Assembly: GCA_021372535.1 (NCBI GenBank)
Contig: JAJFUH010000038.1
Coordinates: forward strand, 12,719-76,718
Direction of reading: 5' to 3'
DNA length: 64,000 bases
From: a bacterium
Lineage (GTDB): Bacteria > Latescibacterota > Latescibacteria > Latescibacterales > Latescibacteraceae
The translations under genes were made by a program, and so were the position numbers. Of this stretch, positions 2,766-39,537 are shown in pieces. The number at the start of each line of letters is the position of its first letter. Within the stretch, counting starts at the first letter, position 1. The notes beneath the pieces are model-generated. The model was not told where the DNA came from, ran no database searches, and saw only the letters and a list, made by a program, of their open reading frames with translations.

Positions 2766-2879
2766 TACCGCTATTTTTCAGGAAGAAGGAAAAACCGTAA
2801 GCCGCATGCGTGTGAACAATCCGGGTAACAACGATTGCTGTGGATGCCGTCTGAAAACGGAGACCCTGCTCCGGAGATG

Positions 2880-3335
2880 TCACAGGTCTTTACGCATGAT
2901 TATGCGTGTCTCCCCGGGCCCGAAATAATCATCCACGGTCTCCGTCTCACGGAAACCGAGGGCGCGATAACATGCCCGTGCATCTGTGTTTCCGGGTGCA
3001 ACGGTCAGAAACACTTCATCCGCTCCTTTGGAGGACAATACGTCGATCGCATCGAGCATGAGTCCCGTCGCAATACCCATGCGGCGGTATTCATTTTTCA
3101 CGGCGAGCGAAAGTATCCAGCACGCTCCGTTTTCCGGCTTCAAAGCGCCGAGAACATACCCGGCGATGGTTCCCGTATCGTTTACGGCGATGCGGAGCAG
3201 ATTGCCGAACACATCAAGCGCCTGACGGAAAAAAAACAGTGGATAGCCATGAACCCCGAACACTTCCTGTTCCAAAGAAAATACATCCGCTAAATCACCC
3301 ACGGCAGCTGTCCGTATGGTTATATGAGAATCCAA
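2880..3335 (-). CDS. GNAT family N-acetyltransferase (RimI-like)
   Basis: The segment ...LAVKNEYRRMGIATGLMLDAIDVL...VFLTVAPGNTDARACYRALGF carries the GNAT acetyl-CoA-binding motif R-x-x-G-x-A. Confidence 0.75.
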   Translation of the reverse strand: MDSHITIRTAAVGDLADVFSLEQEVFGVHGYPLFFFRQALDVFGNLLRIAVNDTGTIAGYVLGALKPENGACWILSLAVKNEYRRMGIATGLMLDAIDVLSSKGADEVFLTVAPGNTDARACYRALGFRETETVDDYFGPGETRIIMRKDL

Positions 3336-3365
3336 GGATGGCCTTTCGTTTTAAAAAAAATTTGG

Positions 3366-3556
3366 TTATTCAATTAGTGCATAAAACTTACAGATGAGAT
3401 GTTTTTTTCATGTTAACGTGTCATTCCCGTGAAAACGGGAATCCATCACCTGATGCTCATGACAGAGCGAAGTTAATACTGGATTCCCAATTCACTTCGT
3501 TCTTGGGAATGACAATACTTGGGAAATACATTAGTGATTATGAGCTTATTGAATAA
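3366..3556. repeat. MITE-like interspersed element, copy 1 (TIR TTATTCAATWAG; internal GTCATTCCCG/CGGGAATCC and GGATTCCCAA/TTGGGAATGAC hairpins)
   Basis: It is near-identical to 29978-30197. The terminal inverted repeats are GGTTATTCAATTAG at the left end and GCTTATTGAATAAAC at the right end. Four copies of the 8-mer GGGAAT/ATTCCC form nested stems. Confidence 0.7.
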
Positions 3557-3717
3557 ACAAAAAAGAGAAAAAACCAAGCTTTTCAGAAAATATGCAAAAC
3601 CGGAAATGAAAACAACACCATTGTACCATAAACCTTCCACAAAAAACGCCGCTGCATCTTCTGTTTTACAGAATGCACAGCGGAGCTCAATGAAAAAGTA
3701 CAACATTTTACGGTGTA

Positions 3718-5187
3718 TCAAGGCTTGATTGTTGTAATCTCCGTCCAGCTGCCGATGTTTGAACCGCCTTCGAGTTCGGTATCGTTGACATTGACGCGGT
3801 TGACATTCATTCTTGTACCGTCCTCGCTGTTATAGCTGTAACCGGACTGGTGGATCACATAATGCTTACCGTCCACCTCGCCGAGATACGTCGATATATG
3901 GCCGCCGTCACCGACAAAGCATATTCCGGGCTCGCATCCCTTGAGAAACTCGTATTTTTTCTCTTTCGGAGTCGAGCGGGGGAACATGACGACATGGTCT
4001 GAAGCATGCAGCTCGTGGGTTGTCCATCGGCCGGTATAAATACCGCACGTTCTGAGGACAACACGAACCATCCCGCAGCAGTCTCGTTCGTTGTATGAAT
4101 CCGCCCAGCCGTAGGGACGGTAGAGCAGGGTGAAAAGGGTATTGATGACATTACGCTGGGTGAAAGGCTGGTAGCCGACACTGACCCGCGCATCGGGTTT
4201 CACCCATCCGGCAGCCATGCCGAACGAGCCATCCGGCTTGCGGTACGGATAGCTTACCTCGTAACCGTCGGCGGTTTTCCTGGTGAGCCTGACTTTTGCG
4301 CCCATGTAAAAATCCTCGATAAACACATCGAAGTTTTTGTCGGCATAAATCGGCACCTTGTGGCAGGTAGCGACGATAAAATCCGTGCTGTTGATGTAGT
4401 CGCCGATTTCCTTCGGAGAGCCGAAAGCCACATTGACCGCGGGTATCCAGCCGAAGCAGATTTCGCTCCGCACGTAATACCAGTCATGATCCTTCGACAC
4501 ATGGAGAACCGCAACCGGCTGGCCGTAATCAATCATTCCCGACTGGAAACTATCGAGCCAGCCGCCCGGACCGCCGCTTGCCGGCAGGTTGGTGGGCATC
4601 ACTCTGTCGAGCGTATGCTTCACGAGAATTCCATACCGCGGGGTAATGATCTTTGCGGGAATCGAAGACACATTGGTCATGTCGATGAGCTCATTTTTCA
4701 TGTCCTCGTCGTACTTCATGTTTCTTCGATCGTAGAGGTTACGGTTATTGAACCAGTTGTTCGAGCGCTCGATACGAGCGCGGAGGCTGTCGGCGGGAAA
4801 AGAAGTGATCGAGAGCGGATCCTCGACATGGTACATGATTCCGATGAGGTCCTTATCGTCGAGTACCTGCTGAATCGAATAAGGATTCCCGAAAGCATCG
4901 GTGAATTCTGAACCGCGCGTGCTGTTCTTTTTATTGAGCTCCCGTATCTGTGCCGGGGTCAATATGATCTTGTCGGGATCCTTGATACGGGAAATCCAGA
5001 AATCGGCCGACTGCATCTCTGCAGTCGATCCGGGAACGACTTTCGGAGCGGTAAGCGCCTGTCTACGCTCGCCCTGACGTTCACCTTGACGTTCACCACG
5101 GGGCGCGTTTGCCTGGCCCTGTGCAACGGAAACAATCATGGCGAATAATGCAAAGCATACGCTCATACTCTTCAGCACTTTACTCAT
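3718..5187 (-). CDS. Secreted NlpC/P60 family cell-wall hydrolase-like protein (paralog of 31813-33282)
   Basis: It has a signal peptide (MSKVLKSMSVCFALFAMIVSVAQG) and a GERQGERQGERRQ tandem repeat. The C-terminus carries a DCCGMV...GGHISTYLG...VIHQSG Cys/His/His NlpC/P60-type triad. GGGAGA precedes the ATG. Confidence 0.6.
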   Translation of the reverse strand: MSKVLKSMSVCFALFAMIVSVAQGQANAPRGERQGERQGERRQALTAPKVVPGSTAEMQSADFWISRIKDPDKIILTPAQIRELNKKNSTRGSEFTDAFGNPYSIQQVLDDKDLIGIMYHVEDPLSITSFPADSLRARIERSNNWFNNRNLYDRRNMKYDEDMKNELIDMTNVSSIPAKIITPRYGILVKHTLDRVMPTNLPASGGPGGWLDSFQSGMIDYGQPVAVLHVSKDHDWYYVRSEICFGWIPAVNVAFGSPKEIGDYINSTDFIVATCHKVPIYADKNFDVFIEDFYMGAKVRLTRKTADGYEVSYPYRKPDGSFGMAAGWVKPDARVSVGYQPFTQRNVINTLFTLLYRPYGWADSYNERDCCGMVRVVLRTCGIYTGRWTTHELHASDHVVMFPRSTPKEKKYEFLKGCEPGICFVGDGGHISTYLGEVDGKHYVIHQSGYSYNSEDGTRMNVNRVNVNDTELEGGSNIGSWTEITTIKP

Positions 5188-5656: not shown

Positions 5657-6349
5657 ATGAGATATCTGACGCTGCTCTTAAGTTTAATCCTTGTTCTCGG
5701 AACTGCCGGCTGTATTTTCGACAGCGATAAAAAGGACGACATCAAGGGGGAGTATCTCGATTCATACTTCCCGCTCAATCCGAAGCTGACAAGGAACTAC
5801 ACGGTAACGACCTTTCTGGATTCGCTCGAATCCCGCAGTACCATGATCCGGTTTTTTTCCGGGATAATGAACTTCCATGGTACTCCCTACTATATTCTTC
5901 AATCGACCGACAGCGACAAGTATTCGTATTACCGTATCGACAACGGTATTCTCTATCGTTTTTACTTTGAAAACGAAAAATATTTCGTTCCCTTCGCTCA
6001 CGAGGAGCCTCTTCTCGACTTTACGAAAAATCCCGGTGAATCCTGGCTTGTCGTCGACAACACCATTCCGGAAACAAACGGAGAAACCACCTATACTCTC
6101 ACCGCAACGTATGTCGGGCTTGAAACGGTTCAGGTACCGGCCGGAACATTCGAAGGGTGTACGCGGTATGATAATTACGAAACATTTGTCAATGTATACA
6201 GCACCGGGGAAGGCGAGAACACGCAGAGAATGGAGATGAGATACAGCACATGGTATGCGAAGAGCGTCGGACTTGTCAAGGCGACATCCGAGGGGGATTT
6301 TTTCGGAAATTATCTGATCGAGCTCGAGACCTATACCCTGAAGAAATAA
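5657..6349 (+). CDS. Lipoprotein of a repeated uncharacterised domain family (paralog of 11813-12544 and of both halves of 40744-42432)
   Basis: The lipobox is LGTAGC followed by IFDSD. It shares the pattern YFPL...W.Y...G..VpAGTFegC...W.A..vGLVK with three other domains in the window. Confidence 0.6.
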   Translation: MRYLTLLLSLILVLGTAGCIFDSDKKDDIKGEYLDSYFPLNPKLTRNYTVTTFLDSLESRSTMIRFFSGIMNFHGTPYYILQSTDSDKYSYYRIDNGILYRFYFENEKYFVPFAHEEPLLDFTKNPGESWLVVDNTIPETNGETTYTLTATYVGLETVQVPAGTFEGCTRYDNYETFVNVYSTGEGENTQRMEMRYSTWYAKSVGLVKATSEGDFFGNYLIELETYTLKK

Positions 6350-7991: not shown

Positions 7992-8972
7992 ATGAATGCC
8001 GTTCCTGATCAGGAAACGTATGTACCGATATATCTCGGCACCATGAGAGCCAACACATTACAGCTATTCAGTATTTATATCAAGATTGCTGATAATTATG
8101 TGCTCTATCATACCGGGGGTGAACGACTCAACGAGGAGGTGCTCAATAAACTCATCTATAATAAAATAACGTTTGTGTATATCAGGAAAAAAGATACCGG
8201 TGCTTATAATGAGTACCTTGCCGAAAATCTTTCCTTGATTCTTCGGGATCCAGTTACATCTGTCGAAGAAAAAGCCGAAATAGCTAATTACTCCATTAGA
8301 ACCATCGCCCATTATATTTTCGAACAGCCTGACCCCGCCAATCTGAAACTCTTCAGGCAGTCCGTTGTTTCGGCAACGGATTTTATCCTTAATTATGAAG
8401 AAGCAATATATGCACTCATCCGTATGACATCATACAATTTCACCATTCCGAATCATTCCATTAATGTTGGTATTTTTGCCACGGGACTCGCAAAAACAAT
8501 TTTACGCAATGATCCGGCGCACAAAATACAGGAAATTGCAATGGGATTTTTCCTCCATGATATCGGCAAGAGCCTGATCCCCGAGAGTATCATGAACAAA
8601 CCGGGACCCCTGACCCACAGCGAATGGAAAACCATGAAACTCCATCCGTCAGAGGGATTCAAGCTTCTTACGAACAACAATATCCGCAGCGAGGAAATCA
8701 AAATAATCGTTACCCAGCACCATGAGCGTAACAGCGGAAAAGGGTATCCCCGGGGTTTGAAAGGGAATCAGATCCACATGTACAGCAAGATATGCCTGAT
8801 CGCAGATATTTTTGAGGCGCTCACATCCCACCGGCCTTATAAAAAACGTCACGACAGCTCGTTCAACGCTCTTCTCACCATGAAAAATGAAATGCTCAAG
8901 GAATTCGATCCGTTCTTTTTTCAGCAATTCGTTCTCCTTTTCCGAAATACCTTCGGGACATCCCATATATAA
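7992..8972 (+). CDS. HD-GYP domain c-di-GMP phosphodiesterase, paralog 1 of 3, with an uncharacterised roughly 150-aa N-terminal domain (possibly DUF3391-like)
   Basis: Motifs present are HSINVG, FFLHDIGK, HPSEG, HHERNSGKGYP and IADIFEALTSHRPYKK. Confidence 0.8.
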   Translation: MNAVPDQETYVPIYLGTMRANTLQLFSIYIKIADNYVLYHTGGERLNEEVLNKLIYNKITFVYIRKKDTGAYNEYLAENLSLILRDPVTSVEEKAEIANYSIRTIAHYIFEQPDPANLKLFRQSVVSATDFILNYEEAIYALIRMTSYNFTIPNHSINVGIFATGLAKTILRNDPAHKIQEIAMGFFLHDIGKSLIPESIMNKPGPLTHSEWKTMKLHPSEGFKLLTNNNIRSEEIKIIVTQHHERNSGKGYPRGLKGNQIHMYSKICLIADIFEALTSHRPYKKRHDSSFNALLTMKNEMLKEFDPFFFQQFVLLFRNTFGTSHI

Positions 8973-9373
8973 AAAAATACCATACGTAATACATGAATCG
9001 GATTCATGCTCTGCATATAAAAGCCCGGAATTCCCGTTCATCCGGTATGGTTGCCCTGTTTGATCATACCTTATTATAAGAAATTCCGTGAGGATACTGA
9101 GTATTTCCCACGGCACAACCATGAGAAGTATTTTAAAAAAATAGGGGGTTGCTAAAAAATAACTTTCCTCTTGCTCAAGATTTTTATATCCTTCCTACTA
9201 CGGATCAGGTTTTGACAACACCTGCATTATCTGATATGGCTTTTGATTAATCGTATTACAATGAAACACTCCGTTCCTGACAAAGGTTATTAATAATAGT
9301 TACCTGTACCAGGAATGTTTATGGTTTGTACTGAAAAATATAATACGGTACTTTTTCGAGGTTATAGACTGAA

Positions 9374-10372
9374 ATGGATCAGACACCACCTGCAGAATTC
9401 ATTCCCATTTATCTCCGAACTATGCGTGTCAACACATTGCAGTCTTTCAGTATATACATTAAAGTTGTCGATAATTATGTACTCTATCACAGCGGAGGCG
9501 AAAAATTAACCGAGGGTGTTCTCAACAAGCTTATTGAAAATAAAATAGTTTATGTCTATATCCGTAAGCAGGATACGGAGGCTTATTTACAGTATCTTTC
9601 GGAAAATCTTTCAAAAACGCTCAAAGACCCCGATGTTTCTCTCAAGGAAAAATCCGAAATCGCCAATGTTTCTATACGCAGCATCGCCTTTACCTTTTTT
9701 GATAAACCCAGCGAAGAAACCCTTAAACAGTACATGACATCCGTCGCAACATTGGCCGAATATATCCTTACATATGAAGAAGCAATTTATACCCTCATAC
9801 GCCTGACTTCGAACAAATACGGTATTTCAACCCATTCTATCAATGTCGGTATGTATGCGACAGGCCTCGCGAAAAATCTCCTGGCCGACGATCCCAGTCA
9901 TAATATCAAGGAAATTTCGGCGGGATTTTTTCTCCATGATGTCGGTAAAAGTCTCATACCCGGACAGATTCTCTATAAAAACGGTCCGCTGACTCACAGC
10001 GAATGGAAAACCATGAAACGTCACCCCACCGAAGGATTCAAACTCCTCAATCAGTTCAATCTCAACAGTAATGAAATAAAAATCATCACAACACAGCACC
10101 ATGAAAGGAAAAACGGTAAAGGTTATCCCATCGGCATCAAAGGTGACGGTATTCACATATACAGTAAGATATGCAGTATCGCCGATTCGTTCGAAGCCCT
10201 TACTGCGACCAGACCATATAAAAAAAGGAACGAAAGCTCCTTTAACGCTCTCCTGATATTGAAGAATGAAATGATGAATGAATTCGATCCGTTCTTTTTC
10301 CAGCAGTTTGTCCTTCTGTTCCGCGAAGCACTCGAGCAGTCGAAACCTAAAACTGTCGTACAGTTATCGTAA
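9374..10372 (+). CDS. HD-GYP domain c-di-GMP phosphodiesterase, paralog 2 of 3
   Basis: Motifs present are HSINVG, FFLHDVGK, HHERKNGKGYP and IADSFEALTATRPYKK. It is colinear with paralogs 1 and 3. Confidence 0.8.
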   Translation: MDQTPPAEFIPIYLRTMRVNTLQSFSIYIKVVDNYVLYHSGGEKLTEGVLNKLIENKIVYVYIRKQDTEAYLQYLSENLSKTLKDPDVSLKEKSEIANVSIRSIAFTFFDKPSEETLKQYMTSVATLAEYILTYEEAIYTLIRLTSNKYGISTHSINVGMYATGLAKNLLADDPSHNIKEISAGFFLHDVGKSLIPGQILYKNGPLTHSEWKTMKRHPTEGFKLLNQFNLNSNEIKIITTQHHERKNGKGYPIGIKGDGIHIYSKICSIADSFEALTATRPYKKRNESSFNALLILKNEMMNEFDPFFFQQFVLLFREALEQSKPKTVVQLS

Positions 10373-10737
10373 TGATTGCCTGATACTTTTCCTTGAATAT
10401 CCTCTGTTCCTGACAGATATCATTATCTGGCTTCCGATAATCATTCCTGCTGTTCCCATGCCCTCCGTGTCTCAGTAGTGAAAATATTTGAACTTCCATG
10501 CTTTTTATAAGATATAACCGGATAAGTATATGTGTTTGATGAAATAATCGAGTGTCCGGCTGTTCCGGTTTTTGTATGTCCTTTTAATCGTTTTAAATTA
10601 CAGCCAAATACATAAAACATTTACTGATTTTTGATTTAAGATTGTTTTTAAACTTGACTTTAGTAAATTCAGGTAGCATAGTAGCATGATAGTGAGTATT
10701 TCAACAAGAAATACGTTTATTCGGGAGACAGAGTTTT

Positions 10738-11712
10738 ATGTTTCAGACTATGGATCAGGTTTATTATGAGGTACCACTTAATTCGATAAGGATCGATTCA
10801 GAGCCGTATTTCAATATTTATAATAAGATAGAGGATGAATATAAGTTCTTTCATTCTAAGGGAGAACCGTTTACCGATGAAAATCTCGACGGGTTTCTCA
10901 GCAAAGGAATCATGTCGGTTTTTATCCATGCGAACGATTCCAAATACTACAGCCAATATCTGGCCGATAATCTCACTGACATTCTCGGCAATCCGAACAT
11001 GACTGTCAATGAAAAGGCGCAATTTTCCCATGCGGGAATCACCGGTGTTGCCCGGATTCTTTTCGAACAGCCAAAGCTTGAAATAATACGGTTATTCAAA
11101 TCCTCGATATCATCCGTGACTGATTTTGTACTCGAAGATGAAGATGCCATCAGCGAGCTTATTCGCCTGACATCATACAGTTTCAGTCTGTCGACACATT
11201 CTGTCAATGTCGGTATCTTTGCGCTGGGTCTGGCAAAAATGCTTCTGGGTAATGACCCGTTCCATAATATGCGTGAAATCGCCGCCGGATTTTTCCTCCA
11301 TGATATCGGTAAAAGCATGATACCTCAGTCAGTTCTGCATAAAGCCGGCCCTCTGACTCATAACGAGTGGAGAAGTCTCAAGCTGCATCCGACGGAAGGT
11401 TATAAACTCCTGAATCAATTTAAAATCTGCAATAATGACATAAAAACAATCGTCATGCAGCACCATGAACGTAACAACGGGAGAGGGTACCCGTACGGTT
11501 TACATGAAGATGAAATCCACCTGTACAGTAAAATCTGCAGTATTGCCGATGTTTTTGAAGCGCTCACATCTCATCGTCCTTACAAAAAGGAGAGTAAAAG
11601 TTCGTTTTCCGCATTACTTATCCTGAGAAAGGAAATGGCAAAAGAGTTCGACCCGCATATGTTCCAGCAGTTTGTTCTCCTGTTCCGTAACGCATACGAT
11701 ATTCAATCATGA
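10738..11712 (+). CDS. HD-GYP domain c-di-GMP phosphodiesterase, paralog 3 of 3
   Basis: Motifs present are HSVNVG, FFLHDIGK, HHERNNGRGYP and IADVFEALTSHRPYKK. GGGAGA lies 8 nt upstream of the ATG. Confidence 0.8.
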   Translation: MFQTMDQVYYEVPLNSIRIDSEPYFNIYNKIEDEYKFFHSKGEPFTDENLDGFLSKGIMSVFIHANDSKYYSQYLADNLTDILGNPNMTVNEKAQFSHAGITGVARILFEQPKLEIIRLFKSSISSVTDFVLEDEDAISELIRLTSYSFSLSTHSVNVGIFALGLAKMLLGNDPFHNMREIAAGFFLHDIGKSMIPQSVLHKAGPLTHNEWRSLKLHPTEGYKLLNQFKICNNDIKTIVMQHHERNNGRGYPYGLHEDEIHLYSKICSIADVFEALTSHRPYKKESKSSFSALLILRKEMAKEFDPHMFQQFVLLFRNAYDIQS

Positions 11713-17985: not shown

Positions 17986-20031
17986 ATGAAACAGATTACA
18001 GTGCAGGACGGCCGGGTGATGTTTCATGAAGTTCCCGTTCCGGCTGCGGGCGACGATGAGGTACTGGTAAAGATCGAGCGGTCGTATCTGGCAATCGGTA
18101 CAGGAAGCGCACCGGGCAATGGAAACGTCCGTTCAGGGGAAAATCCGCCACCTCTGTTTTCGGCTGCAGGAACGGTGGCGGAGGCAGGAAAGAACGTTCA
18201 TGACCTGTTCCCCGGCGACAGGGTAGCCTGCGTTTGCATGGATGCCGCAGGTCATGCCGGGTATAAGAGCTTCCATCACAGTCTTACGGTTCCCGTGCCG
18301 GATAAACTGAACATCGAAGAGGCCGCTCTTGTCGCGCCGGGAGCCGCTGCATTACAGGGTGTACGGAGGGCGCGGCCAACGCTCGGGGAGCACTTTATTG
18401 TCGTGGGAATGGGACTGACCGGCCAGATTACCTTCCAGCTCCTGAAAGCGGAGGGATGCAGGGTAACGGGTATCGATACGGTGTCCGGGCGGTTACAGCA
18501 AGCGCTTGAACATGGTCTCGATTCGGGTTTCGATCCCGGAAGCGGCGACTTTGTTGCAAATGTTAAACGCATAACCGGGGGAATGGGCGCCGATGGTATC
18601 ATACTCACCGTTCCCTGTCCGGATGACATCCTCATGGCGGTATATGCCGTATGCCGTAAAAAGGCCCGCGTAGTGCTGGTTGATGAGGGAATCTGTTCTC
18701 TTTCCCTCGCCGGTATTCAGGGGAATGAGTTCGATATCTCCATCGCGGCTTCAATGGGACCCGGCATATCGGATAGCGAGCGGGAAAGGGGAAGTGTCGA
18801 TTTTCCCCTCGGATACGTGCGCTGGACAGACAGCCGGAACATGGCGGAATATCTGCGCCTTGCGGCGGAAGGCATAGTCACCGCCCGTTATCTTGTCGAG
18901 GGAGTCTATCCTCTCGAAAATATTCAGGATGCCTGTGACGCGATTAACGGTTCCCTCCGAAAACCTTCCGCGATTCTCGTGTCCTTTCCGGAAACGGCGG
19001 AGACCGGACAGCCCGTACAAACGGTGTGTGATACTCCCATCAGGACAGTGAAAACAAAACCGCTCCGTGTTGCCGTTATCGGCGCGGGATCGTTCGCTCA
19101 GGCGGTACATATCCCGAATATCAGGCAGAATCCCGACCTGTATGCGCTTGAAGCGGTTGCCTGCCGCACCGGGGAACATGCCCGAGCTGCCGCCGAAAAG
19201 TTAGGGATCAGCCGTTTCACTGCCGACTATGAAGAGATTCTGGAAAATCCCGAAATCGATGCGGTTGTTATCGCGACCCGTCACAACCTCCATGCGCACA
19301 TTGCCCTAAAGGCGCTGAAGTCGGGCAAACATGTGCTTGTGGAAAACCCTCTCGCAATGAACAGGACGGAGCTCGATACGATTCTCGATTTCTATTCGCA
19401 ATCCGGGGAAAAGAGAGCGCCGCTGCTCATGACAGGATTCAACAGGCGGTTTTCACCCCTTGTCAGCCGTATCCGTGAGATTTTGGAGAACCGTACGAAT
19501 CCGATGGTGATCAACTACCGTATGAACGCGGAGTTCCTCCCGCCCGACCACTGGTTATACGGCGCGGAAGGCGGCGGCAGAAATATCGGCGAAGCATGCC
19601 ACATATACGATTTATTCACCTGTCTGACCGATTCTCCCGCTCTGTCTGTCGAAGCACTGTCCATACGGCCTCCGCAGGGGAAATTTAGTAGCCGCGATAA
19701 TTTTGTCGCCACGATTACATTCGGGGACGGCTCGCTCGCGACACTGACCTGTACAACGCTCGGTTCATCCGGATATCCGAAGGATCTCCTCGAGATTTAC
19801 TGTGACAACCGGGTGTTTGTTCTTGACGATTTTTCCGCGCTCACCGGGTATGGTATCGCCGATGTCCGCATGTCCGGCCAGAACGGGAAAGGGGAGAGGG
19901 AGGAAATCGAAGCATTCGCCCGTGCTGTAGTCGAAGGAGGCCCGTGGCCGGTTCCCCTCTGGCAGCAGGTTCAGGCAATGGATATTGCATTCGAGATGAA
20001 AAGGCTCCTGATGGATACATCGCCGGAATAA
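17986..20031 (+). CDS. Bi-domain oxidoreductase: N-terminal MDR/zinc-type alcohol-dehydrogenase-like domain plus C-terminal Gfo/Idh/MocA NAD-binding domain
   Basis: The N-terminus has VLVKIERSYLAIGTG...GDRVAC. The C-terminus has LRVAVIGAGSFAQAVHIPN...EKP and GFNRRFSP. It is a paralog of the next gene. Confidence 0.75.
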   Translation: MKQITVQDGRVMFHEVPVPAAGDDEVLVKIERSYLAIGTGSAPGNGNVRSGENPPPLFSAAGTVAEAGKNVHDLFPGDRVACVCMDAAGHAGYKSFHHSLTVPVPDKLNIEEAALVAPGAAALQGVRRARPTLGEHFIVVGMGLTGQITFQLLKAEGCRVTGIDTVSGRLQQALEHGLDSGFDPGSGDFVANVKRITGGMGADGIILTVPCPDDILMAVYAVCRKKARVVLVDEGICSLSLAGIQGNEFDISIAASMGPGISDSERERGSVDFPLGYVRWTDSRNMAEYLRLAAEGIVTARYLVEGVYPLENIQDACDAINGSLRKPSAILVSFPETAETGQPVQTVCDTPIRTVKTKPLRVAVIGAGSFAQAVHIPNIRQNPDLYALEAVACRTGEHARAAAEKLGISRFTADYEEILENPEIDAVVIATRHNLHAHIALKALKSGKHVLVENPLAMNRTELDTILDFYSQSGEKRAPLLMTGFNRRFSPLVSRIREILENRTNPMVINYRMNAEFLPPDHWLYGAEGGGRNIGEACHIYDLFTCLTDSPALSVEALSIRPPQGKFSSRDNFVATITFGDGSLATLTCTTLGSSGYPKDLLEIYCDNRVFVLDDFSALTGYGIADVRMSGQNGKGEREEIEAFARAVVEGGPWPVPLWQQVQAMDIAFEMKRLLMDTSPE

Positions 20032-20140
20032 CCATTACGAGTCTGATTCCACCGTGAAGCAAGCGGAACGATGTCAGGAATAACAAATGCCCTGACAACA
20101 TGGATAATATAAAGATACGCAGCTCTATACGAGGTTTGGA

Positions 20141-22510
20141 ATGAAACAGGTTTTTCTGAGAGACGGTAAGGCAGTCGTTGAGGAAATACCGCCCCCGACG
20201 CCGGGTGCTGATGAGGTTCTCGTCAAAGTCGTTCGCTCGTGCATCTCGACCGGCACGGAGCTTAGCGGAATAACCGCGATGAAGCCGCCCGAGCCGGTTC
20301 CTGAAGCTATTCCCGAAGCAGTTCCTGAACAACCGGTTGTGCACATCCCTCTCTGGAAGCAGATACTCACCGATCCCGGTATGTGGGAGCGGGCGATCAA
20401 AGACCCCCGGAAAATCGTACGCTTCCTGTGGAGGCTTTTCGTGAGCGCACTGAAATGGCCGATAAACAGGCTGAGATCCTACCTGTTGGTTCAGATTCTC
20501 ACATCGCCCGGCATGTGGAAACGGGCGATCAAGGACCCGAGAAAAATACTCCGCTTCCTGGGAATCATCAGGGAGCGCGGACTGGAGTTCGCGACGACAT
20601 CGGTCGCGGCGCAGATATCAGTGGCTTATCCCCTTGGATACTCTGCTGCCGGTATCGTGCTTGAAACGGGAGAAAACATCCGCGACATCTCTCCCGGCGA
20701 CCGGGTTGCCTGTGCGGGAGCCCAGTGTGCGCATCATGCCGAATATATCGTTGTTCCGCGGAATCTCCTCGTTCCCGTGCCGGACAGCCTGGATTTCGAT
20801 ACGGCAAGCACTGTAGCGCTCGGTTCGATAGCCATGCAGGGTGTGCGCCGTGCTCAGCCGGAGATCGGGGAAACGTTCGTGGTCATCGGACTTGGCCTTT
20901 TAGGGCAGATGACCGTCCAGCTTCTGAAAGCGAACGGCTGCAGGGTAATCGGGACAGACCTCGATCCGCAGCGTATCGACCTCGCAAAAAAGCTGGGGAT
21001 GAACACCGGACTCTACCCCGGCCAGGGAGTTCCAGTCGAACTGGTGAACCGTCTTACCGGAGGAACGGGAGCAGACTGTGTCATCATCACCGCCTCCGGC
21101 CCGTCAGCTATACTGGCGACGGCTTTCCAGATGTGCCGGAGAAAGGGGAGAGTTGTTCTGGTCGGCGATGTGGCCATCACAATCAGTCGCGGCGATATTT
21201 ACCGCAAGGAGCTCGATTTCTTCATCTCAACATCGTACGGTCCCGGACGATATGATGCACGGTATGAAGAAAAGGGGATCGATTACCCGCCGGGTTATGT
21301 GCGCTGGACCGAGAACCGTAACATGATGGAATATCTACGTCTTGCGGCGGAGAAGAAAATTTCGGTCGGCCCCCTCATACAGAAGGTGTTTCCGGTCGAA
21401 ACGGCGTCGGACGCTTATTTTACCCTGAAATATTCCCCCGACAAGCCGCTCATTGCCCTTCTGTCGTATCCCGAAGCCGGAATGGACGTTCAGCCCGGAC
21501 GGAAAATACCGAATCCCGAAGTCCATCCCGTAGTGGTGGATAAACGCATACATGTCGCCGTGGTCGGCGCTGGCGGATTTGCTAAGGGCATCCATCTGCC
21601 TAACTTTAAAAAGCTGTCCGAGGTGTATTCCATCCATGCCATAGCGGATGTAGTGGGGCATAATGCGGTGGCGACGGCAAAGCAGTTCGGAGCCGCTTAT
21701 TCGACGACGGATTTCCAGGAGGTCATCGAAGACCCCGATATCGATGCAGTTTTCATCACAACCCGCCATCATCTCCATGCCCTGCTTACCGAAAAGGCTC
21801 TCAGGGCAGGCAAACATGTCTTCGTGGAAAAACCGCTCTCCATGGACAGGAAAGGGCTCGAAGCTATCAGGCAGGTCTTTGAATCGTCCGGCGAAAATGC
21901 GGCTCCGGTTCTGCTGACCGGTTTCAACCGTCGATTTTCGCCATTCGCCCGGCGGATACGGGAGCTCACGAACGGCCGTAAAAATCCGATGATACTCAAC
22001 TACCGCATGAATGCCGGATACATTCCGCTCGATCACTGGGTGCACGGCGAGGAGGGAGGTGGACGGAACATCGGCGAGGGATGTCATATTTACGATCTTT
22101 TCACCTATCTCGTCGATGCACGGGTAACCGCCATCGAGGCAAAATCCATCAGGCCAGCGACCGATTACTGCAGTTACCGCGATAATTTCGCCGCGACGAT
22201 GACGTTCGAGGACGGTTCGATTGCGACTCTTACCTATACGGCGCTCGGTTCAGCCGAATACCCGAAGGAAAACCTCGATGTTTTCTGCGACGGCATGGTG
22301 CTTGTGCTCGATAATTACACTACGCTCACCGGGTACGGCACAAGCGAAGCGGATATTTCCTCAGCGGGTGTCAAGGGGCATTTCGAGGAGATTCAAGCCT
22401 TCGCGGCTGCAATTTCGGAGAAAAAAACCGCGCCTATTCCTCTCTGGCAGCAGTATCAGGCGATGGAAATCGCCTTCGAGGTAGACCGCATCCTTGCAGC
22501 GAAGAAATAG
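20141..22510 (+). CDS. Bi-domain MDR + Gfo/Idh/MocA oxidoreductase, paralog 2, carrying a roughly 100-aa in-frame insertion with an internal 22-aa direct repeat
   Basis: It is colinear with 17986-20031. The extra segment lies at about 20270-20620 and includes ILTDPGMWERAIKDPRKIVRFL and ILTSPGMWKRAIKDPRKILRFL. Confidence 0.75.
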   Translation: MKQVFLRDGKAVVEEIPPPTPGADEVLVKVVRSCISTGTELSGITAMKPPEPVPEAIPEAVPEQPVVHIPLWKQILTDPGMWERAIKDPRKIVRFLWRLFVSALKWPINRLRSYLLVQILTSPGMWKRAIKDPRKILRFLGIIRERGLEFATTSVAAQISVAYPLGYSAAGIVLETGENIRDISPGDRVACAGAQCAHHAEYIVVPRNLLVPVPDSLDFDTASTVALGSIAMQGVRRAQPEIGETFVVIGLGLLGQMTVQLLKANGCRVIGTDLDPQRIDLAKKLGMNTGLYPGQGVPVELVNRLTGGTGADCVIITASGPSAILATAFQMCRRKGRVVLVGDVAITISRGDIYRKELDFFISTSYGPGRYDARYEEKGIDYPPGYVRWTENRNMMEYLRLAAEKKISVGPLIQKVFPVETASDAYFTLKYSPDKPLIALLSYPEAGMDVQPGRKIPNPEVHPVVVDKRIHVAVVGAGGFAKGIHLPNFKKLSEVYSIHAIADVVGHNAVATAKQFGAAYSTTDFQEVIEDPDIDAVFITTRHHLHALLTEKALRAGKHVFVEKPLSMDRKGLEAIRQVFESSGENAAPVLLTGFNRRFSPFARRIRELTNGRKNPMILNYRMNAGYIPLDHWVHGEEGGGRNIGEGCHIYDLFTYLVDARVTAIEAKSIRPATDYCSYRDNFAATMTFEDGSIATLTYTALGSAEYPKENLDVFCDGMVLVLDNYTTLTGYGTSEADISSAGVKGHFEEIQAFAAAISEKKTAPIPLWQQYQAMEIAFEVDRILAAKK

Positions 22511-27875: not shown

Positions 27876-29780
27876 TCATGAACCGATATATTCCTTCCAC
27901 CACAGCGCAAAATTGAGCAAAAACCAAATATCGACTCCCTGCCCGTTGTCCAGAAATTGGGAAATCTGTTTTTTGTCGAGAAAATCGGTTTTGTCGCAGA
28001 ATGAATTCATCTCGGTTCTCGATTTTTCCCCGAGACGGTCGAAAAACCATTCGTACACAGGCACTCCGAATCCCTGTTTGGGACGGTCGATGAGCTCATC
28101 GGGGATGATGCCGCGAACCGCTTTTTTCAGGATATATTTTGTCACGCCGTTCTTCGTTTTTACTTTTTCCGGGATGCTCATGGCGAGCTCCACGAATTTG
28201 TGGTCGAGAAACGGCACACGGCATTCGAGGCTCACTCCCATGCTCATCTTGTCGACCCGCATCAGGAGCAGCTCCGGCAGCCGGACGCTCAGATCGGCAT
28301 AGCTCATCCAGTTCAGGTTCGATTTTTCCCATGCTTTTTCTTCGAACCGTTTCCGGATTGGCTGGAGCGCTTCCCATGTGGAGAAATTCTTGAATTTCTG
28401 CCGCAGGCGCGGGCTCAGTATCGTGGCTTTCTGACTGTCGCTGTAAATGTCACACCCTCCCCAGAAGATGGGCTGGCCGAGCGATATGCGGCGAAGCCAT
28501 TCGAGCTTGAAATCATTACGGAATATGGGCCGGTCTTTCAAAAAAGACATCCCGATATTCTTCAGCCAGGGGAAAAGGAAATAATCGCTGAAATTCGCCG
28601 CATTGAGCGGACTCTTCCACCACGGATATCCCCAGAAGAGCTCATCGGCGCCCTCGCCGACCTGACAGACGATGACGCCGTTGTCCCTGGCCAGCTTCGA
28701 TACATAATAGACGGGAATACATACAGGATCGGCTATCGGCTCGTCCTGCAGCCAGACCATTCGGGGGAGAAAATCGAGGAGATCGTCGATGGTCAGGAGC
28801 TTTTCATGATGTTCCGCTCCAAGAATGTCAGCCATCTTTTTTGCATAGTAGCCTTCGTTCTTGTAGCTCTGGTATTCGCCGACATACCCGATGGTGAAGG
28901 TCTTGACCGGGTTCTTTTCGCCCTCCGAGAAAAATGCCGCATTGGTGCTCGAATCGATCCCGCCGGAAAGGAAAACGCCCACCGGGACGTCGCTCACCTT
29001 GCGGTACCGTACCGTCGTGCGCAGCTCATCGACAATGCGATGGGCTATTTCGTCCTCGCTGACTCCGGTGAGAGGCTCGGTATGATCCCAGACATCCCAG
29101 TACCTGTTCTCCTGAATCCGGCCGTCCTCATGTACTTTGAGCCATGTTCCGCCGGCAAGTTTCCCGATGCCCTCGAACAGGGTCAGCGGAGCGGGAGTGG
29201 TGATGAACGTCAGAAAATGATACAGGGCCTCCTCGTTGACCGCGCGGTTCTGTTCGGGGTCCTGGAGCAGGGCCTTGATCTCGGAGGCGAAGACGATACG
29301 GCCATGATGGATGCTGTAGTAGAGCGGCTTGATGCCGATGCGGTCACGGATAAGCCAGAGCTCGCGTTTTACCGAGTCCCAGAGCGCTATGGCGAACATA
29401 CCCCTGAAACGGTGGAGACATTCGATGCCCCACTGCTCGAACGCATGGATGATCACCTCGGTATCGGAGTGATCGGTCTTCCAGCGGTGGCCGCCGATCG
29501 CTTCGAGCTCGGCGCGTATTTCCTGGTGGTTGTATATCTCGCCGTTGAACGATACCCAGAGCGTCTCGTTCTCGTTGCTCATAGGCTGCGTGGCGCTTTC
29601 CGAGAGATCGATAATGGAAAGCCTCCTGTGCCCCAGACCGAAGCGCCCTTTTTCATCGATCCATAATCCGGCGCCGTCCGGTCCCCGATGATCCATGACA
29701 TCACGCATGTTCATGATATAGGCAGGTGTAACGATAAAATTACTGTTTTTAAAAACAAGAGCACCGGCTATTCCACACAT
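27876..29780 (-). CDS. asnB: Asparagine synthetase (glutamine-hydrolysing) family amidotransferase (WbpS-like context)
   Basis: The N-terminus MCGIAGAL is the class-II glutamine-amidotransferase nucleophile. The gene also has SGGIDSS (PP-loop). AGGAAG lies upstream of the ATG. Confidence 0.85.
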   Translation of the reverse strand: MCGIAGALVFKNSNFIVTPAYIMNMRDVMDHRGPDGAGLWIDEKGRFGLGHRRLSIIDLSESATQPMSNENETLWVSFNGEIYNHQEIRAELEAIGGHRWKTDHSDTEVIIHAFEQWGIECLHRFRGMFAIALWDSVKRELWLIRDRIGIKPLYYSIHHGRIVFASEIKALLQDPEQNRAVNEEALYHFLTFITTPAPLTLFEGIGKLAGGTWLKVHEDGRIQENRYWDVWDHTEPLTGVSEDEIAHRIVDELRTTVRYRKVSDVPVGVFLSGGIDSSTNAAFFSEGEKNPVKTFTIGYVGEYQSYKNEGYYAKKMADILGAEHHEKLLTIDDLLDFLPRMVWLQDEPIADPVCIPVYYVSKLARDNGVIVCQVGEGADELFWGYPWWKSPLNAANFSDYFLFPWLKNIGMSFLKDRPIFRNDFKLEWLRRISLGQPIFWGGCDIYSDSQKATILSPRLRQKFKNFSTWEALQPIRKRFEEKAWEKSNLNWMSYADLSVRLPELLLMRVDKMSMGVSLECRVPFLDHKFVELAMSIPEKVKTKNGVTKYILKKAVRGIIPDELIDRPKQGFGVPVYEWFFDRLGEKSRTEMNSFCDKTDFLDKKQISQFLDNGQGVDIWFLLNFALWWKEYIGS

Positions 29781-29977
29781 GGAATTCTTCCTGTTCTGTC
29801 AAAAGCACAATTCACCGTTATTATGCTGTTGTGTGTGTCTGTGACACATTCACCGATTCGTTTATAAAGCTACAAGTTACAAAAATAAGTCGTATAAAGT
29901 CAAACGCAATAATATTCATGGGTTATTTCCCGAGAAAGAAATGCAAATCGGGAAGGTTTTTTAATTGTATTTTCTGG

Positions 29978-30197
29978 TTATTCAATAAGTGCATATAATT
30001 AACGGATGTGATGTTTTGACACATTAAAAATGTCATTCCCGTAAAAGACGTCACCCATCGAATCATTAATCGGGGGCGGGAATCCATCGCCCCATACTCG
30101 ATAAAGAGTAGTGTCAATACTGGATTCCCAATTCACTTCGTTCTTGGGAATGACAGTACTTGTACAATAAATTAGTGATTATGAGCTCATTGAATAA
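29978..30197. repeat. MITE-like interspersed element, copy 2, with a roughly 40-nt internal insertion carrying a GGGGGCG...CGCCCC hairpin
   Basis: It aligns end-to-end with 3366-3556 and has the same terminal inverted repeats (GGTTATTCAATAAG ... GCTCATTGAATAATC). It sits in the divergent asnB/dehydrogenase promoter region. Confidence 0.7.
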
Positions 30198-30305
30198 TCA
30201 GATTGTATTTTATTGAATCAATCACTATTATCTTTTATATACCGGTGCAGTATGGAATTATCCATGACTTTTCACATACCATAACAAGATACAAGGGAAA
30301 GCGTG

Positions 30306-31673
30306 ATGAATAACGAGAAAGTTTATTCCGTAATCGGTCTCGGGAAGCTCGGCGCTTCGATGGCCGCGGCTGTTGCAAGCCGGGGATTTCAGGTTATCGG
30401 CGTTGATATAAATAAAAAAGCTGTCGATCTGCTCAATGCCGGTCATGCTCCGGTGCATGAGACGGACCTCGAAAACTATGTTGCCGCCAACAGGGAACGG
30501 CTCCGTGCAACCATGAGTCACTACGATGCGGTGATACATTCTGACATTTCGTTTGTCATCGTTCCCACGCCGAGTGACAAACGGGGCGCATTCTCTCTCC
30601 AGTATGCCGCATGGGCGTTCCGTGAAATGAGCAGGGGGCTCAAAGATAAAAATTCATATCATCTCGTCGTTCTCGTAAGCACGGTACTTCCCGGTTCCAC
30701 CCGTTACGGCCTGCTTCCAGTGCTGGAAAAAGGATCGGGGAAAACATGCGGGCCCGATTTCGGGCTCTGCTACAGTCCCGATTTCATCGCGCTCGGGAGT
30801 ATTATACATAATTATCTGAATCCCGATTTTAATCTCGTCGGCGAATTCGACAGGCGCTCGGGCGATCTTCTCGGGGAATTTTACTCGCAGGTCATGCTCA
30901 ATAGTCCCCCGTGCAAACGTATGACCCTCGAAAACGCCGAACTCGCGAAAGTTGCGCTCAACACCTTCGTAACCACGAAAATCGCCTATGCCAACATGAT
31001 CGCCGAAATCTGCGAGCAGATTCCCGGCGGCGATGTTGATGCGGTTACCGATGCCATCGGAACCGATTCGCGCATCGGGAAGCAGTACCTCAAGGGCGCT
31101 CTCGGTTATGGCGGCCCGTGTTTCCCGAGGGATAACCTGGCGCTCAGCTTCTTCGCTTCACGCATGAATGTAAAAGCCGAAATTGCGGAAACCACCCATC
31201 GCTCAAACTTTCAGTGGGCAGAAAAAATTGTCAGACGGCTGATCAGCGAAATTAAACACCCCGCTACCGTGGCAGTACTTGGGCTGGCATATAAACCGTA
31301 TTCGGACGTTGTCGAAGAATCTCAATCGCTGTATATAGCACAGGCTTTATCGGAAGCGGGGGTCAGAGTCATCGGATATGACCCGCTCGCGGGGAATGCC
31401 GCCCGGAACGAGATTGGCGACAGAACGGTGATACTCGATTCCCTTAGAGAATGCCTCGATCAGGCTGATGTCGTGCTCATCACCACACCGGACCCGGAGT
31501 TCAAGGCTCTCAGGGCAGAGGATTTCGGAGATAAAAAGGTCGTTGTTTTCGATTTCTGGCGCATCCTCGAAAAAGAGCTCGCGGGAAAGGCCACCATACG
31601 GTATATCCCGGTGGGCAGAAGCGTCGACGATAAGACAAACAGGGACAGACTTTTTTCATTATGGAATAATTGA
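30306..31673 (+). CDS. UDP-sugar (UDP-glucose/GDP-mannose family) dehydrogenase, WecC/WbpA-like
   Basis: The N-terminal Rossmann segment is VIGLGKLGASMAAAVA. The catalytic segment is GYGGPCFPRDNLAL. An ATG at 30306 sits next to a GTG at 30303. Confidence 0.8.
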   Translation: MNNEKVYSVIGLGKLGASMAAAVASRGFQVIGVDINKKAVDLLNAGHAPVHETDLENYVAANRERLRATMSHYDAVIHSDISFVIVPTPSDKRGAFSLQYAAWAFREMSRGLKDKNSYHLVVLVSTVLPGSTRYGLLPVLEKGSGKTCGPDFGLCYSPDFIALGSIIHNYLNPDFNLVGEFDRRSGDLLGEFYSQVMLNSPPCKRMTLENAELAKVALNTFVTTKIAYANMIAEICEQIPGGDVDAVTDAIGTDSRIGKQYLKGALGYGGPCFPRDNLALSFFASRMNVKAEIAETTHRSNFQWAEKIVRRLISEIKHPATVAVLGLAYKPYSDVVEESQSLYIAQALSEAGVRVIGYDPLAGNAARNEIGDRTVILDSLRECLDQADVVLITTPDPEFKALRAEDFGDKKVVVFDFWRILEKELAGKATIRYIPVGRSVDDKTNRDRLFSLWNN

Positions 31674-37149: not shown

Positions 37150-38331
37150 ATGGTTAACGGATTCCGCAGCATGGTTGCGCAGCTCCGATTTCAGGAGATG
37201 ATAAAGGGTATGTTTTTGCTCGCTGTGATCTGTTGTCCGGAAATGCTGTATGTCCACGCTGCCGAAGCACAGGGCTGGGACGATTTCACCCGCATGCGGT
37301 TCATCGTGCCGAGGGGATACGTGTGCTACCGTGCGACAAAACCGGTGGTGATCGACGGCAAACTCGATGAAGAGGCATGGACATACATTCCCTGGACCGA
37401 GTATTTCGGCGATATCGAGGGCGATGCAAAACCGAGGCCGCGGTTCCGCACACAGGCGAAAATGCTCTGGGACGACACCTATTTCTACGTGGGCGCATTC
37501 ATCGAGGATACCCATGTCTGGGCGACGCTCACCAAACACGATGCGGTTATATTTTACGACAACGACTTTGAGATATTCATCGATCCCGACAGCGACAACC
37601 ACGAGTACTACGAAATCGAAATCAACGCCCTCAACACAGAATGGGACCTCTTTCTTAAGCGGCCGTACAAGGATTTCAGTCCCGGCATGGGTGCCGATAA
37701 TGGCTGGGAAATCCCCGGTCTCAAGACCGCGGTTCATGTCTACGGCACACTCAACGACCCGAAGGATGAGGATCAGGGATGGTCGGTCGAGTTTGCGCTG
37801 CCGTGGGCAGTGCTCAAGGAATTTGCCCATAAACCGGCGCCGCCTCGTGATGGCGACCAGTGGCGCGTGAACTTTTCACGGGTCGAGTATCTTCCCGAAA
37901 TCATCCTTACCACGAATGTCCGGAAAACGGAAAAGAGTTTCCTCACGAAAGCGGATGGAACGCGGTGCGAAAACTGGATATGGTCGCCCCAGGGCATCAT
38001 CAATATGCATTGTCCGGAAAAATGGGGATATGTCCAGTTCTCGACCGGTATTCCCGGAACGGTTGAGTTCCGGCCCGACCCGACTGAACCCGCCCGGATG
38101 ATCCTCCATGAAATCTATTATGCACAACGCGATTTTTTCAGGAAAAACAACCGGTGGGCAACGACGATCGATGATCTCGGTCTCGCTGTTCCGACACACA
38201 AGAGCGTGGTCAAGGCGCCGGTCATCAAACGGTCCGGCGACGGATACACTGCCACACTTACGGTCAAACTGCCGGACGGCAGCCAGAAAACCGTGAGCAT
38301 AGACCAGTTTTCAAAAGTAACCGTCGAATAA
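37150..38331 (+). CDS. CBM9-like (carbohydrate-binding family 9 / DOMON-like) domain protein, paralog 1
   Basis: The segment KMLWDDTYFYVGAFIEDTHVWAT...DNDFEIFIDPD...YYEIEINALN fits the CBM9-like pattern. GGGGAGG lies 6 nt upstream of the ATG. Confidence 0.55.
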   Translation: MVNGFRSMVAQLRFQEMIKGMFLLAVICCPEMLYVHAAEAQGWDDFTRMRFIVPRGYVCYRATKPVVIDGKLDEEAWTYIPWTEYFGDIEGDAKPRPRFRTQAKMLWDDTYFYVGAFIEDTHVWATLTKHDAVIFYDNDFEIFIDPDSDNHEYYEIEINALNTEWDLFLKRPYKDFSPGMGADNGWEIPGLKTAVHVYGTLNDPKDEDQGWSVEFALPWAVLKEFAHKPAPPRDGDQWRVNFSRVEYLPEIILTTNVRKTEKSFLTKADGTRCENWIWSPQGIINMHCPEKWGYVQFSTGIPGTVEFRPDPTEPARMILHEIYYAQRDFFRKNNRWATTIDDLGLAVPTHKSVVKAPVIKRSGDGYTATLTVKLPDGSQKTVSIDQFSKVTVE

Positions 38332-38355
38332 CAGATACAACGGAGGCTGTAAACG

Positions 38356-39537
38356 ATGAAATGTCAAAAAGCACAGGAGCGACCGGTACTTATGCCCGGG
38401 TTGAAAACCACCAGCGTCTGTTTCATGGTATGCGCCATTATTGTATCTGCCTGTGCAGCATATGCCCAGGTACCCGACCGTGCACGGTGGCAGCATATGA
38501 GAACAGTAGACCAGGAGCAGTACATCTGTTATCGAACCGCCGGCGGCATCGAGCTCGATGGCAGGCTCGACGAAACGTCCTGGAAACAGGCGCCGTGGAC
38601 AAACTATTTTACCGATATCGAGGGGGGGCTTCAGCCGATCCCGCGGTTCAGGACACGGGCGAAGATGCTCTGGGACAACTACTACTTCTATTTCGGAGTC
38701 GAGATCGAGGAACCGCACGTCTGGGGAACGCTCCTTTACCGTGACCAGATTATCTGCAACGACAACGACATCGAGGTTTTCATCGACCCGAACGGAGACA
38801 ACCAGGAATACTACGAGCTCGAAATGAACGTGCTCAACGTCGCGTGGGACCTTTTCCTGAAAAAAGCGTACCGTGACGGCGGCCCGGCGGATTGTTCGTG
38901 GAATATCGCTGGTCTCAGGACAGCGGTATTTGTAGACGGCACGATCAACGACCCCCGTGACACCGACCGGGGATGGTCTATCGAGATAGCCATGCCATGG
39001 ACAACGCTCGAACAATACGCACACCGTCCCTGCCCGCCCCGTAACGGCGACCAGTGGAGAGTCAATTTTTCGCGGGTCGAATGGCCCTTCGAGATCGTAA
39101 CCGCCGACTTGACACCGCAGGATGTACCGAACAACGCCTACAAGCGTACCAGACGGGAAGGCCCCATCGCCTGTGACAACTGGACATGGTCGGATCAGGG
39201 TGTCTGCAACATGCACTGCCCGGAAATGTTCGGGTATGTCCAGTTTTCCACAGCACCCATGGGAACGGATACGTTTCGTCCGGACCCGACTATATCTGCG
39301 CGTCGTGTGCTGCTCGATATCTATTATGCACAGCGCGATTTTTACGGTAAAAATAAACGGTGGGCAGCAACCCTCAAGGAGCTCGGCTACACCTTTGCGC
39401 GTCAGGAAAGCCTCGATGGTCCGCCGGTAATGGAGACGACCGGCGACGGGTGGCATGCCCGGGTGACAACGACTGTTCCCGGCGGGTCGAAGAGGACGGT
39501 ACACATATACCAGGACTCGAAGATAGTGGAGGAATAA
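38356..39537 (+). CDS. CBM9-like domain protein, paralog 2 (signal peptide)
   Basis: It is colinear with 37150-38331, with KMLWDNYYFYFGVEIEEPHVWGT...DNDIEVFIDPN...YYELEMNVLN. It has a signal peptide. Confidence 0.55.
   Translation: MKCQKAQERPVLMPGLKTTSVCFMVCAIIVSACAAYAQVPDRARWQHMRTVDQEQYICYRTAGGIELDGRLDETSWKQAPWTNYFTDIEGGLQPIPRFRTRAKMLWDNYYFYFGVEIEEPHVWGTLLYRDQIICNDNDIEVFIDPNGDNQEYYELEMNVLNVAWDLFLKKAYRDGGPADCSWNIAGLRTAVFVDGTINDPRDTDRGWSIEIAMPWTTLEQYAHRPCPPRNGDQWRVNFSRVEWPFEIVTADLTPQDVPNNAYKRTRREGPIACDNWTWSDQGVCNMHCPEMFGYVQFSTAPMGTDTFRPDPTISARRVLLDIYYAQRDFYGKNKRWAATLKELGYTFARQESLDGPPVMETTGDGWHARVTTTVPGGSKRTVHIYQDSKIVEE

Follow-up and report, generated by a model that had tools for sequence, protein, structure and literature searches.

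We report that two repeats in a 64,000-nt stretch of contig JAJFUH010000038.1 (assembly GCA_021372535.1), from an uncultured bacterium of the FCB group, are copies of a new family of miniature inverted-repeat transposable elements (MITEs), non-coding and ~200 bp long. This stretch is called the window hereafter, and coordinates given without another label are positions in it. The new element is a combination of two known kinds of bacterial repeat, a MITE and a pair of Ssn-target hairpins at its centre; Ssn nucleases and their hairpin motifs were first described in 2025 in Nat Commun (PMC11893778). Both repeats had been noticed in a first-pass annotation of the window, which proposed either a non-autonomous MITE or a structured-RNA repeat family. 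The MITE proposal is borne out by further copies in unrelated contexts, terminal inverted repeats and flanking duplications.

Copies, termini and flanking duplications

Copy 1 occupies positions 3362–3560 (+ strand, 199 nt; profile search with nhmmer, E = 8e-59) and copy 2 positions 29974–30201 (+ strand, 228 nt; E = 7e-54). The two segments named in the annotation are real, align end to end and have the start and end strings quoted for them, but the limits drawn were too short, since the element reaches 4 nt further on each side, and the core described as 60 identical nucleotides is in fact 40 nt long (3475–3514), the longest run identical in both window copies. Over the end-to-end alignment, 159 of 199 aligned positions (80%) are identical. 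A profile built from five copies and run on the 64-kb window matched these two only.

The other three members of that profile come from a metagenome scan for which 22 nt of the hairpin-2 loop and stem served as the query and which returned three JGI metagenome contigs (Ga0172366, Ga0180432; here L121, L122 and L123). Each carries one more full-length copy, 71–79% identical to the window copies, and the rest of these contigs is unshared. Taken together, the five copies are 71–97% identical, span 197–228 nt, with a typical element length of ~197 bp, and have unrelated flanks. A reading of L121 as a mosaic broken at hairpin 1 was considered and rejected, the profile alignment giving a full-length copy with a decayed left end.

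The ends of the element are inverted repeats of each other, as had been claimed. The terminal inverted repeat is perfect over 14 bp (CTGGTTATTCAATT) in L122 and L123 and has one or two mismatches in the window copies. The left repeat of copy 1 (3362–3375, + strand) reads TTGGTTATTCAATT, one mismatch away from the family consensus CTGGTTATTCAATT, and its right counterpart is at 3547–3560 (+ strand). The left repeat of copy 2 (29974–29987, + strand) reads CTGGTTATTCAATA, and the right one (30188–30201, − strand) reads CTGATTATTCAATG on the minus strand. At the right side conservation extends beyond the repeat: the last 24 nt of the element are 83–96% identical among copies.

Direct duplications adjoin these termini. 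Copy 2 is bracketed by ATTGTATTTT, found at 29964–29973 and again, 10/10 identical, at 30202–30211; L123 is flanked on both sides by ATAATTTTTT (10/10), and the flanks of L122, ATTGAATAT and ATTGAATAA, agree at 8/9 positions or, alternatively, over 10 bp with a 1-nt deletion. All three duplications start with A and end with T, which allows a second reading in which the repeat is of 15 bp (TCTGG...CCAGA) and the duplication of 8 bp. Because a perfect 14-bp terminal inverted repeat is joined to identical flanking duplications, and given its size, below the ~600 bp taken as the upper limit for MITEs, its lack of coding sequence and its dispersed copies, the element is a genuine MITE.

The annotation's statement that there is no coding capacity and no transposase in the window also holds. 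No open reading frame (ORF) is conserved across the copies, which contain only short ORFs, none common to them, and among ~46 window ORFs scanned against Pfam there is neither a transposase domain nor a RAYT gene. A spurious 48-aa ORF (MLTCHSRENGNPSPDAHDRAKLILDSQFTSFLGMT...) at 3410–3556 crosses copy 1; peptides such as ...SRENGNP... and ...LDS...GMT... are, we assume, typical translations of such hairpins in database 'hypothetical proteins'. Folding of the complete element, a check that the annotation had proposed, gave −61.3 kcal/mol and z = −6.0 as RNA and z = −4.0 and −6.8 as DNA, much stronger folds than those of shuffled sequence. Both strands fold well, the copies being long imperfect palindromes.

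Copy 1 lies between the convergent ends of two genes (2835–3293, + strand, and 3718–5187, − strand). Copy 2 lies between the divergent asnB (27876–29780, − strand) and UDP-glucose dehydrogenase gene (30303–31673, + strand), the asnB/UDP-sugar dehydrogenase intergenic region where the annotation had placed one copy, and from this position it may possibly influence the asnB/ugd promoter region. The window AsnB is identical to NCBI protein MCE5249350.1; its next relatives, one of them from Latescibacterota, are 75% identical. Lipoprotein-like CarboxypepD_reg/DUF3108-like proteins, 25–30% identical, are encoded in the window (40744–42432 and 5657–6349) and on L123 (1708–3045), adjoining the MITE; these shared proteins suggest that the MITE-bearing contigs derive from broadly related organisms.

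A tail-to-tail pair of Ssn-related hairpins

From left to right the element consists of a 14–15-bp terminal inverted repeat (T)CTGGTTATTCAATT, a variable arm of ~45 nt, hairpin 1, a ~32-nt spacer, hairpin 2, a second variable arm of ~25 nt and the conserved 24-nt right end. Hairpin 1 of copy 1 (3419–3446, + strand; TGTCATTCCCGTGAAAACGGGAATCCAT) has an 8-bp stem and a GAAA loop, with a DNA fold of −7.8 kcal/mol. It is followed by a partly conserved spacer of 32 nt (3447–3478; mean pairwise identity ~0.64) and by hairpin 2 (3479–3514, − strand; TGTCATTCCCAAGAACGAAGTGAATTGGGAATCCAG), also with an 8-bp stem and with an enlarged 12-nt loop. In copy 2, hairpin 2 (30120–30155, − strand) is identical to that of copy 1 and is contained in the 40-nt run shared by both window copies. 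Hairpin 1 of copy 2 (30031–30087, + strand) keeps its outer stem intact and has its loop interrupted by an insertion (30047–30075, + strand; GACGTCACCCATCGAATCATTAATCGGGG). The presence of this insertion and its capacity to form a small hairpin of its own had been described correctly, but its size is 29 nt instead of the ~40 nt then given.

Against an expectation of 0.27, the window has four occurrences of the ATTCCC...GGGAAT pattern, of which three fall within the two elements. Conservation is far higher in the two hairpins and the right end than in the arms: the identity of hairpin 1 is 96–100% among the independent copies 1, L122 and L121, and that of the arms is 25–77%. The left terminus CTGGTTATTCAATT (3362–3375) and the 5′ half of hairpin 2, CTGGATTCCCAATT (3479–3492), are alike at 10/14 positions; the termini may be degenerate hairpin halves, or the resemblance may be due to chance.

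These hairpins correspond to a motif with a known nuclease. Neisseria SsnA, a GIY-YIG nuclease of 94 aa, binds the single-stranded form of its hairpin and cleaves on the upstream side; cleavage depends on the GTC triplet that precedes the palindrome at its 5′ end, binding depends on the C directly after its 3′ end, and neither the opposite strand nor RNA is a substrate (PMC11893778). The target, the Neisseria Transformation Sequence (NTS; CGTCATTCCCGCGMAVGCGGGAATCYRG), was defined as extending dRS3 (ATTCCC-N8-GGGAAT), and a degenerate Ssn-related motif (SRM) was defined as well (PMC11893778). Using the SRM pattern HGTCWYN(0-2)YYVSBRHN(0-5)WNVSBRGN(0-2)RNCYNB, hairpin 1 of copy 1 is the sole match in 64 kb, and order-1 Markov resamples of the window average 0.31 matches. 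It departs from the NTS consensus by four differences, namely the first and last bases and one compensatory stem pair. Both hairpins, hairpin 1 read on the + strand and hairpin 2 on the − strand, retain the GTC that precedes the palindrome on its 5′ side and the C that follows on its 3′ side. In plasmid and phage collections the sole similar DNA was a Neisseria hairpin in two N. gonorrhoeae records of the plasmid collection (31 nt, 93.5% identity, the query being the homologous hairpin 1 of L122). Judged by their sequence, then, the nested hairpins are Ssn-related motifs arranged as a tail-to-tail pair, with one readable on each strand.

The annotation had missed this identity of the GGGAAT/ATTCCC hairpins. 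They are not confined to this repeat family, and the same SRM pair is present across many phyla. A loop-agnostic genome scan with the pattern CTGGATTCCC-N12-20-GGGAATGACA returned at least 120 loci, of which ~10 are estimated to be chance matches. Nitrospirota, Desulfobacterota, Omnitrophota, Chloroflexota, Ignavibacteria, Methylocystis and others are represented among the matches listed, and no full-length family member is found among these. An inverted partner ending in GGGnnTCCA lies 0–51 nt upstream of 60/129 hairpins and downstream of 3/129, again among the matches listed. What the window family and the other phyla have in common is the tail-to-tail pair only (profile positions ~50–155), not the arms. 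Stems vary in a compensatory manner across loci (ATTCCCGT/ACGGGAAT, ATTCCCGC/GCGGGAAT and ATTCCTGC/GCAGGAAT; likewise ATTCCC/GGGAAT, ATCCCC/GGGGAT, ATGCCC/GGGCAT and CCCGT/ACGGG), and it is therefore the hairpin itself that is under selection.

Elements of 150–220 bp that carry the central pair are found in other phyla too, with terminal inverted repeats specific to each lineage. At L034 and L120 the pair is central between 24-bp inverted repeats starting with CCTGATT, with an 8/8 duplication at L034; L054 (5763–5910) and L055 have inverted repeats starting with GTAACTATTCA and duplications of 8/8 and 7/8, respectively; and L018 combines an 18-bp inverted repeat with a 7/8 duplication. Six further loci (L047, L117, L050, L027, L032 and L074) have clear inverted ends and no clear duplication. 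Transposon-like packaging of the pair is also seen in metagenome-assembled genomes of Desulfobacterota and Chloroflexota, and those of Nitrospirota contain elements with inverted ends and no confirmed duplication. A 'TATTCA' terminal motif shared across lineages was considered as well and rejected, as it fits 1/125 loci.

Nitrospirota loci have, downstream of the reverse hairpin, tandem arrays of that hairpin's 3′ half-site (...GGGAATGACAG...). Such an array has a period of 24 nt at L073 (3127–3540) and an estimated period of ~17 nt at L133 (1876–1985), and the downstream flanks of many scan matches look likewise.

Cognate ssnA genes (GIY-YIG, cd10448) are often flanked by SRMs, in an architecture written 'NTS-ssnA-NTS' (PMC11893778). 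Our query for such genes was a consensus of small GIY-YIG proteins, up to 84% identical to real 95-aa PF01541 proteins, and it retrieved 23 loci. At least 13 of the 23 contain a stereotyped cassette of 370–390 bp, in which a forward SRM, 7–16 nt, an ORF of ~100 codons, 0–19 nt and a reverse SRM follow one another; cassettes with a GIY-YIG (ssnA-like) gene between inverted SRM hairpins are located at L125 (1458–1843), L133 (1411–1875) and L134–L154 (~1140–1525 in most). Where loci have unrelated flanks, homology stops at the outer SRM edges of the cassette. In L136, L137, L138 and L144 the stop codon directly adjoins the downstream hairpin. The layout of the window element's core is this SRM(+)-ssnA-SRM(−) arrangement without the gene, with hairpin 1 forward, a 32-nt spacer and hairpin 2 reverse. 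Near the 120 hairpin loci listed by the genome scan, neither a regular expression for the GIY-YIG motif nor tblastn searches using E. coli YhbQ found a GIY-YIG gene; an improved consensus revealed one gene start, at the end of L045.

Secondary hairpins inside SRM-hairpin loops, with the outer stem intact, occur in the window (30047–30075) and at L139 (1523–1569), L142 (1574–1620), L146 (1524–1570) and L133 (1455–1505). They suggest that the loops of SRM hairpins are preferred points of insertion or rearrangement.

Proposed origin and alternative explanations

We consider it probable that each of the two window segments is a copy of a non-autonomous MITE with a central tail-to-tail SRM pair, mobilised in trans, whose core resembles an Ssn cassette devoid of its ORF. 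A transposase making staggered cuts and encoded elsewhere in the genome would move the element in trans; the CTG terminus and the 8–10-bp duplication presumably fit an IS4-like or other DDE family. When the DNA becomes single-stranded, in replication, repair or transformation, each strand would show one correctly oriented hairpin, so that an Ssn-type GIY-YIG nuclease, if the host has one, could recognise whichever strand is exposed. Replication, repair or DNA uptake might in this manner expose the element to single-strand cleavage. As to its origin, the core could be an Ssn cassette without its ORF that an older short MITE captured or that inserted into such a MITE, or else it could result from internal deletion of a larger element.

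Several observations weigh against this proposal. Copy 1, an older copy with decayed termini (TTGG.../...ACAA), and L121 both have mutated ends and no recognisable target-site duplication, and the 64 kb hold two copies only. No autonomous element with the same termini turned up in the window, in the fetched loci or in the plasmid and phage collections; a viral scan gave two matches to the left-end pattern, both of them chance matches in coding DNA, and zero to the core pattern. No empty site was recovered via the AsnB relatives, the nearest being 75% identical with no synteny. Hairpin 2 fails the strict SRM pattern (so does, for its part, the interrupted hairpin 1 of copy 2), and the scan pattern itself accounts for the lack of variation in hairpin 2 among the three metagenome copies; its identity between the two window copies is independent of that pattern. 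No GIY-YIG gene is present in the 64-kb window, nor, for that matter, on the short contigs L121–L123. The Ssn cassettes examined have no extra inverted repeat and no flanking duplication, and the duplications around the MITE therefore point to a second mobilising activity.

An unlikely alternative is that the mobile unit is the hairpin pair itself, an ORF-less Ssn cassette inserted in the single-stranded centre of an older palindromic MITE of ~100 bp, so that nested elements arose in several phyla independently. Terminal repeats that differ wholly between lineages around a conserved and always central pair would be expected from such an origin, as would the recurrence of hairpins inside hairpin loops (window copy 2, L133, L139, L142, L146 and L018) and the way in which Ssn cassettes stop exactly at their SRMs in differing contexts. 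However, a window MITE devoid of the pair did not turn up, no search aimed at one having been made; the pair is present in 5/5 family members, so that the composite now moves as one unit; and a hairpin-insertion mechanism is not known, published Ssn activity being cleavage only (PMC11893778). Related to it is the broader idea, which we advance tentatively and hold to be somewhat unlikely, that tail-to-tail SRM pairs in general are ORF-less derivatives of selfish SRM-ssnA-SRM cassettes which spread into the single-stranded loops of extruded palindromes. Spread by loop entry would account for the precisely central position of the pairs in inverted-repeat elements that are unrelated and differ in their termini, in lineages of several phyla, and for the repeated nesting of one hairpin in the loop of another, of which window copy 2 is an example. 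Were it true, the window element would exemplify an undescribed route by which Ssn target sites colonise MITEs and then hitch-hike on them.

The remaining explanations deny that the element is a transposon. We think it decidedly unlikely that the element belongs with mosaic palindromic repeats such as REP/BIME/NIME or REPINs, propagated through recombination or a hairpin-specific enzyme, and is flanked by duplications only by coincidence. The tail-to-tail pair does resemble REP doublets (REPINs) and dRS3-bounded NIMEs, copy 1 and L121 are without duplications, and the insertion sites are AT-rich and of low complexity; against this, two independent perfect 10-bp duplications and one of 8/9 precisely abut a perfect 14-bp inverted repeat, and duplications accompany elements of other lineages as well. 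Hairpin-specific Y1 transposases are not known to leave duplications around the elements that they move, which also counts against this explanation. The doublet layout of a REPIN is present here, but together with outer terminal repeats and flanking duplications and with no RAYT gene in the window. A structured non-coding RNA gene or a cis-regulatory RNA repeat, the annotation's second proposal, seems very improbable and found no support: its strong predicted fold (z = −6) and the compensatory changes that preserve the hairpin stems across phyla would suit an RNA, but both strands fold well, as expected of a DNA palindrome, an Rfam search returned no meaningful match above noise, and the arms are without within-copy co-variation, their complementarity being no higher than across copies. 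Moreover, scans of both copies found no promoter-like or terminator-like site inside either, the copies sit in either orientation in convergent and divergent intergenic regions, and SsnA acts on single-stranded DNA, not RNA (PMC11893778). Finally, segmental duplication or an assembly artefact is refuted. Paralogs of a 489-aa SH3_6 protein lie within 2 kb of both copies and might have suggested a larger duplicated segment, but this is excluded because they are only 27% identical, and their positions and orientations relative to the element differ. Homology stops at the element ends, so that only the element is common, in agreement with the annotation's remark that the flanks are unrelated; the copies differ at 20% of positions, and related copies exist in independent metagenomes.

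Window context, significance and known systems

Beyond the element, the window holds genes for regulators and for proteins of polysaccharide degradation and the cell surface, whose features include heparinase II/III, sulfatase, CBM9 and GHL6 domains as well as sorting tails for type IX secretion. Three tandem paralogous HD-domain (HD_5) genes at 7992–11712 are 66–69% identical in DNA and have a G+C content of 0.41, vs ~0.51 elsewhere. Tandem paralog pairs are further found at 17986–22510 (fused zinc-dehydrogenase/GFO-IDH-MocA oxidoreductases), 37150–39537 (CBM9-domain proteins) and 45906–48662 (PD40/FlgD-Ig proteins with type IX secretion tails). A motif TTATCCGGTTATC / GATAACCGGATAA occurs three times (65–92, 257–281 and 10498–10525), two of these occurrences forming a 25-nt inverted repeat, 166 nt apart, at the window start; the motif may serve as the binding site of a regulator or represent one more small repeat.

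How SRMs multiply and what role they have beyond Neisseria was left open in their first description (PMC11893778), and the main value of the element is that it suggests a concrete route for the dissemination of SRM motifs. Here an Ssn-type hairpin pair is packaged in a classical transposon-like shell, in an uncultured FCB-group bacterium, linking three repeat classes usually kept apart, i.e. MITEs, NIME/REP-like hairpins and small nuclease cassettes. For annotation, the family accounts for spurious small ORFs such as that at 3410–3556, and it flags intergenic sites, the asnB/ugd control region among them, where insertions may alter expression or make recombination hot spots.

Compared with the published SRM/NTS/dRS3 repeats (PMC11893778), the likeness lies in hairpin 1, which fits the SRM pattern, in the GTC and C kept by both hairpins and in the ATTCCC-N8-GGGAAT form of dRS3. 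Unlike those repeats, the window motif does not stand alone in high copy number; the 64 kb contain four such hairpins, every one within the two elements. Hairpin 2 has a 12-nt loop, no ssnA gene is present in the window, and the host is an uncultured FCB-group bacterium, not a proteobacterial symbiont. The SRM-ssnA-SRM cassettes share with the window element a forward hairpin on the left and a reverse one on the right, with the GGGAATCCAG...CTGGATTCCC ends pointing inward; they differ in having an ORF of ~100 codons for a GIY-YIG protein where the window element has a 32-nt spacer, and those examined are without arms, further inverted repeats and flanking duplications.

Correia elements of Neisseria have 26-bp repeats and a TA duplication and are not known to carry dRS3 hairpins. 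With classical MITEs such as these the window element has in common a size of 100–250 bp, terminal inverted repeats, a target-site duplication, a non-coding, intergenic nature and a wholly palindromic sequence, but its duplication is of 8–10 bp and its conserved part is the internal hairpin pair. In NIMEs, dRS3 brackets the repeat units, and for repeats of the NIME/REP type a link with a dedicated small nuclease or transposase is assumed; REPINs are moved by RAYT transposases and are not known to make duplications. The window element resembles NIMEs and the REP/BIME/REPIN doublets in being a short inverted hairpin pair in intergenic DNA, and differs from NIMEs and REPINs in that true terminal repeats and duplications lie outside its hairpins.

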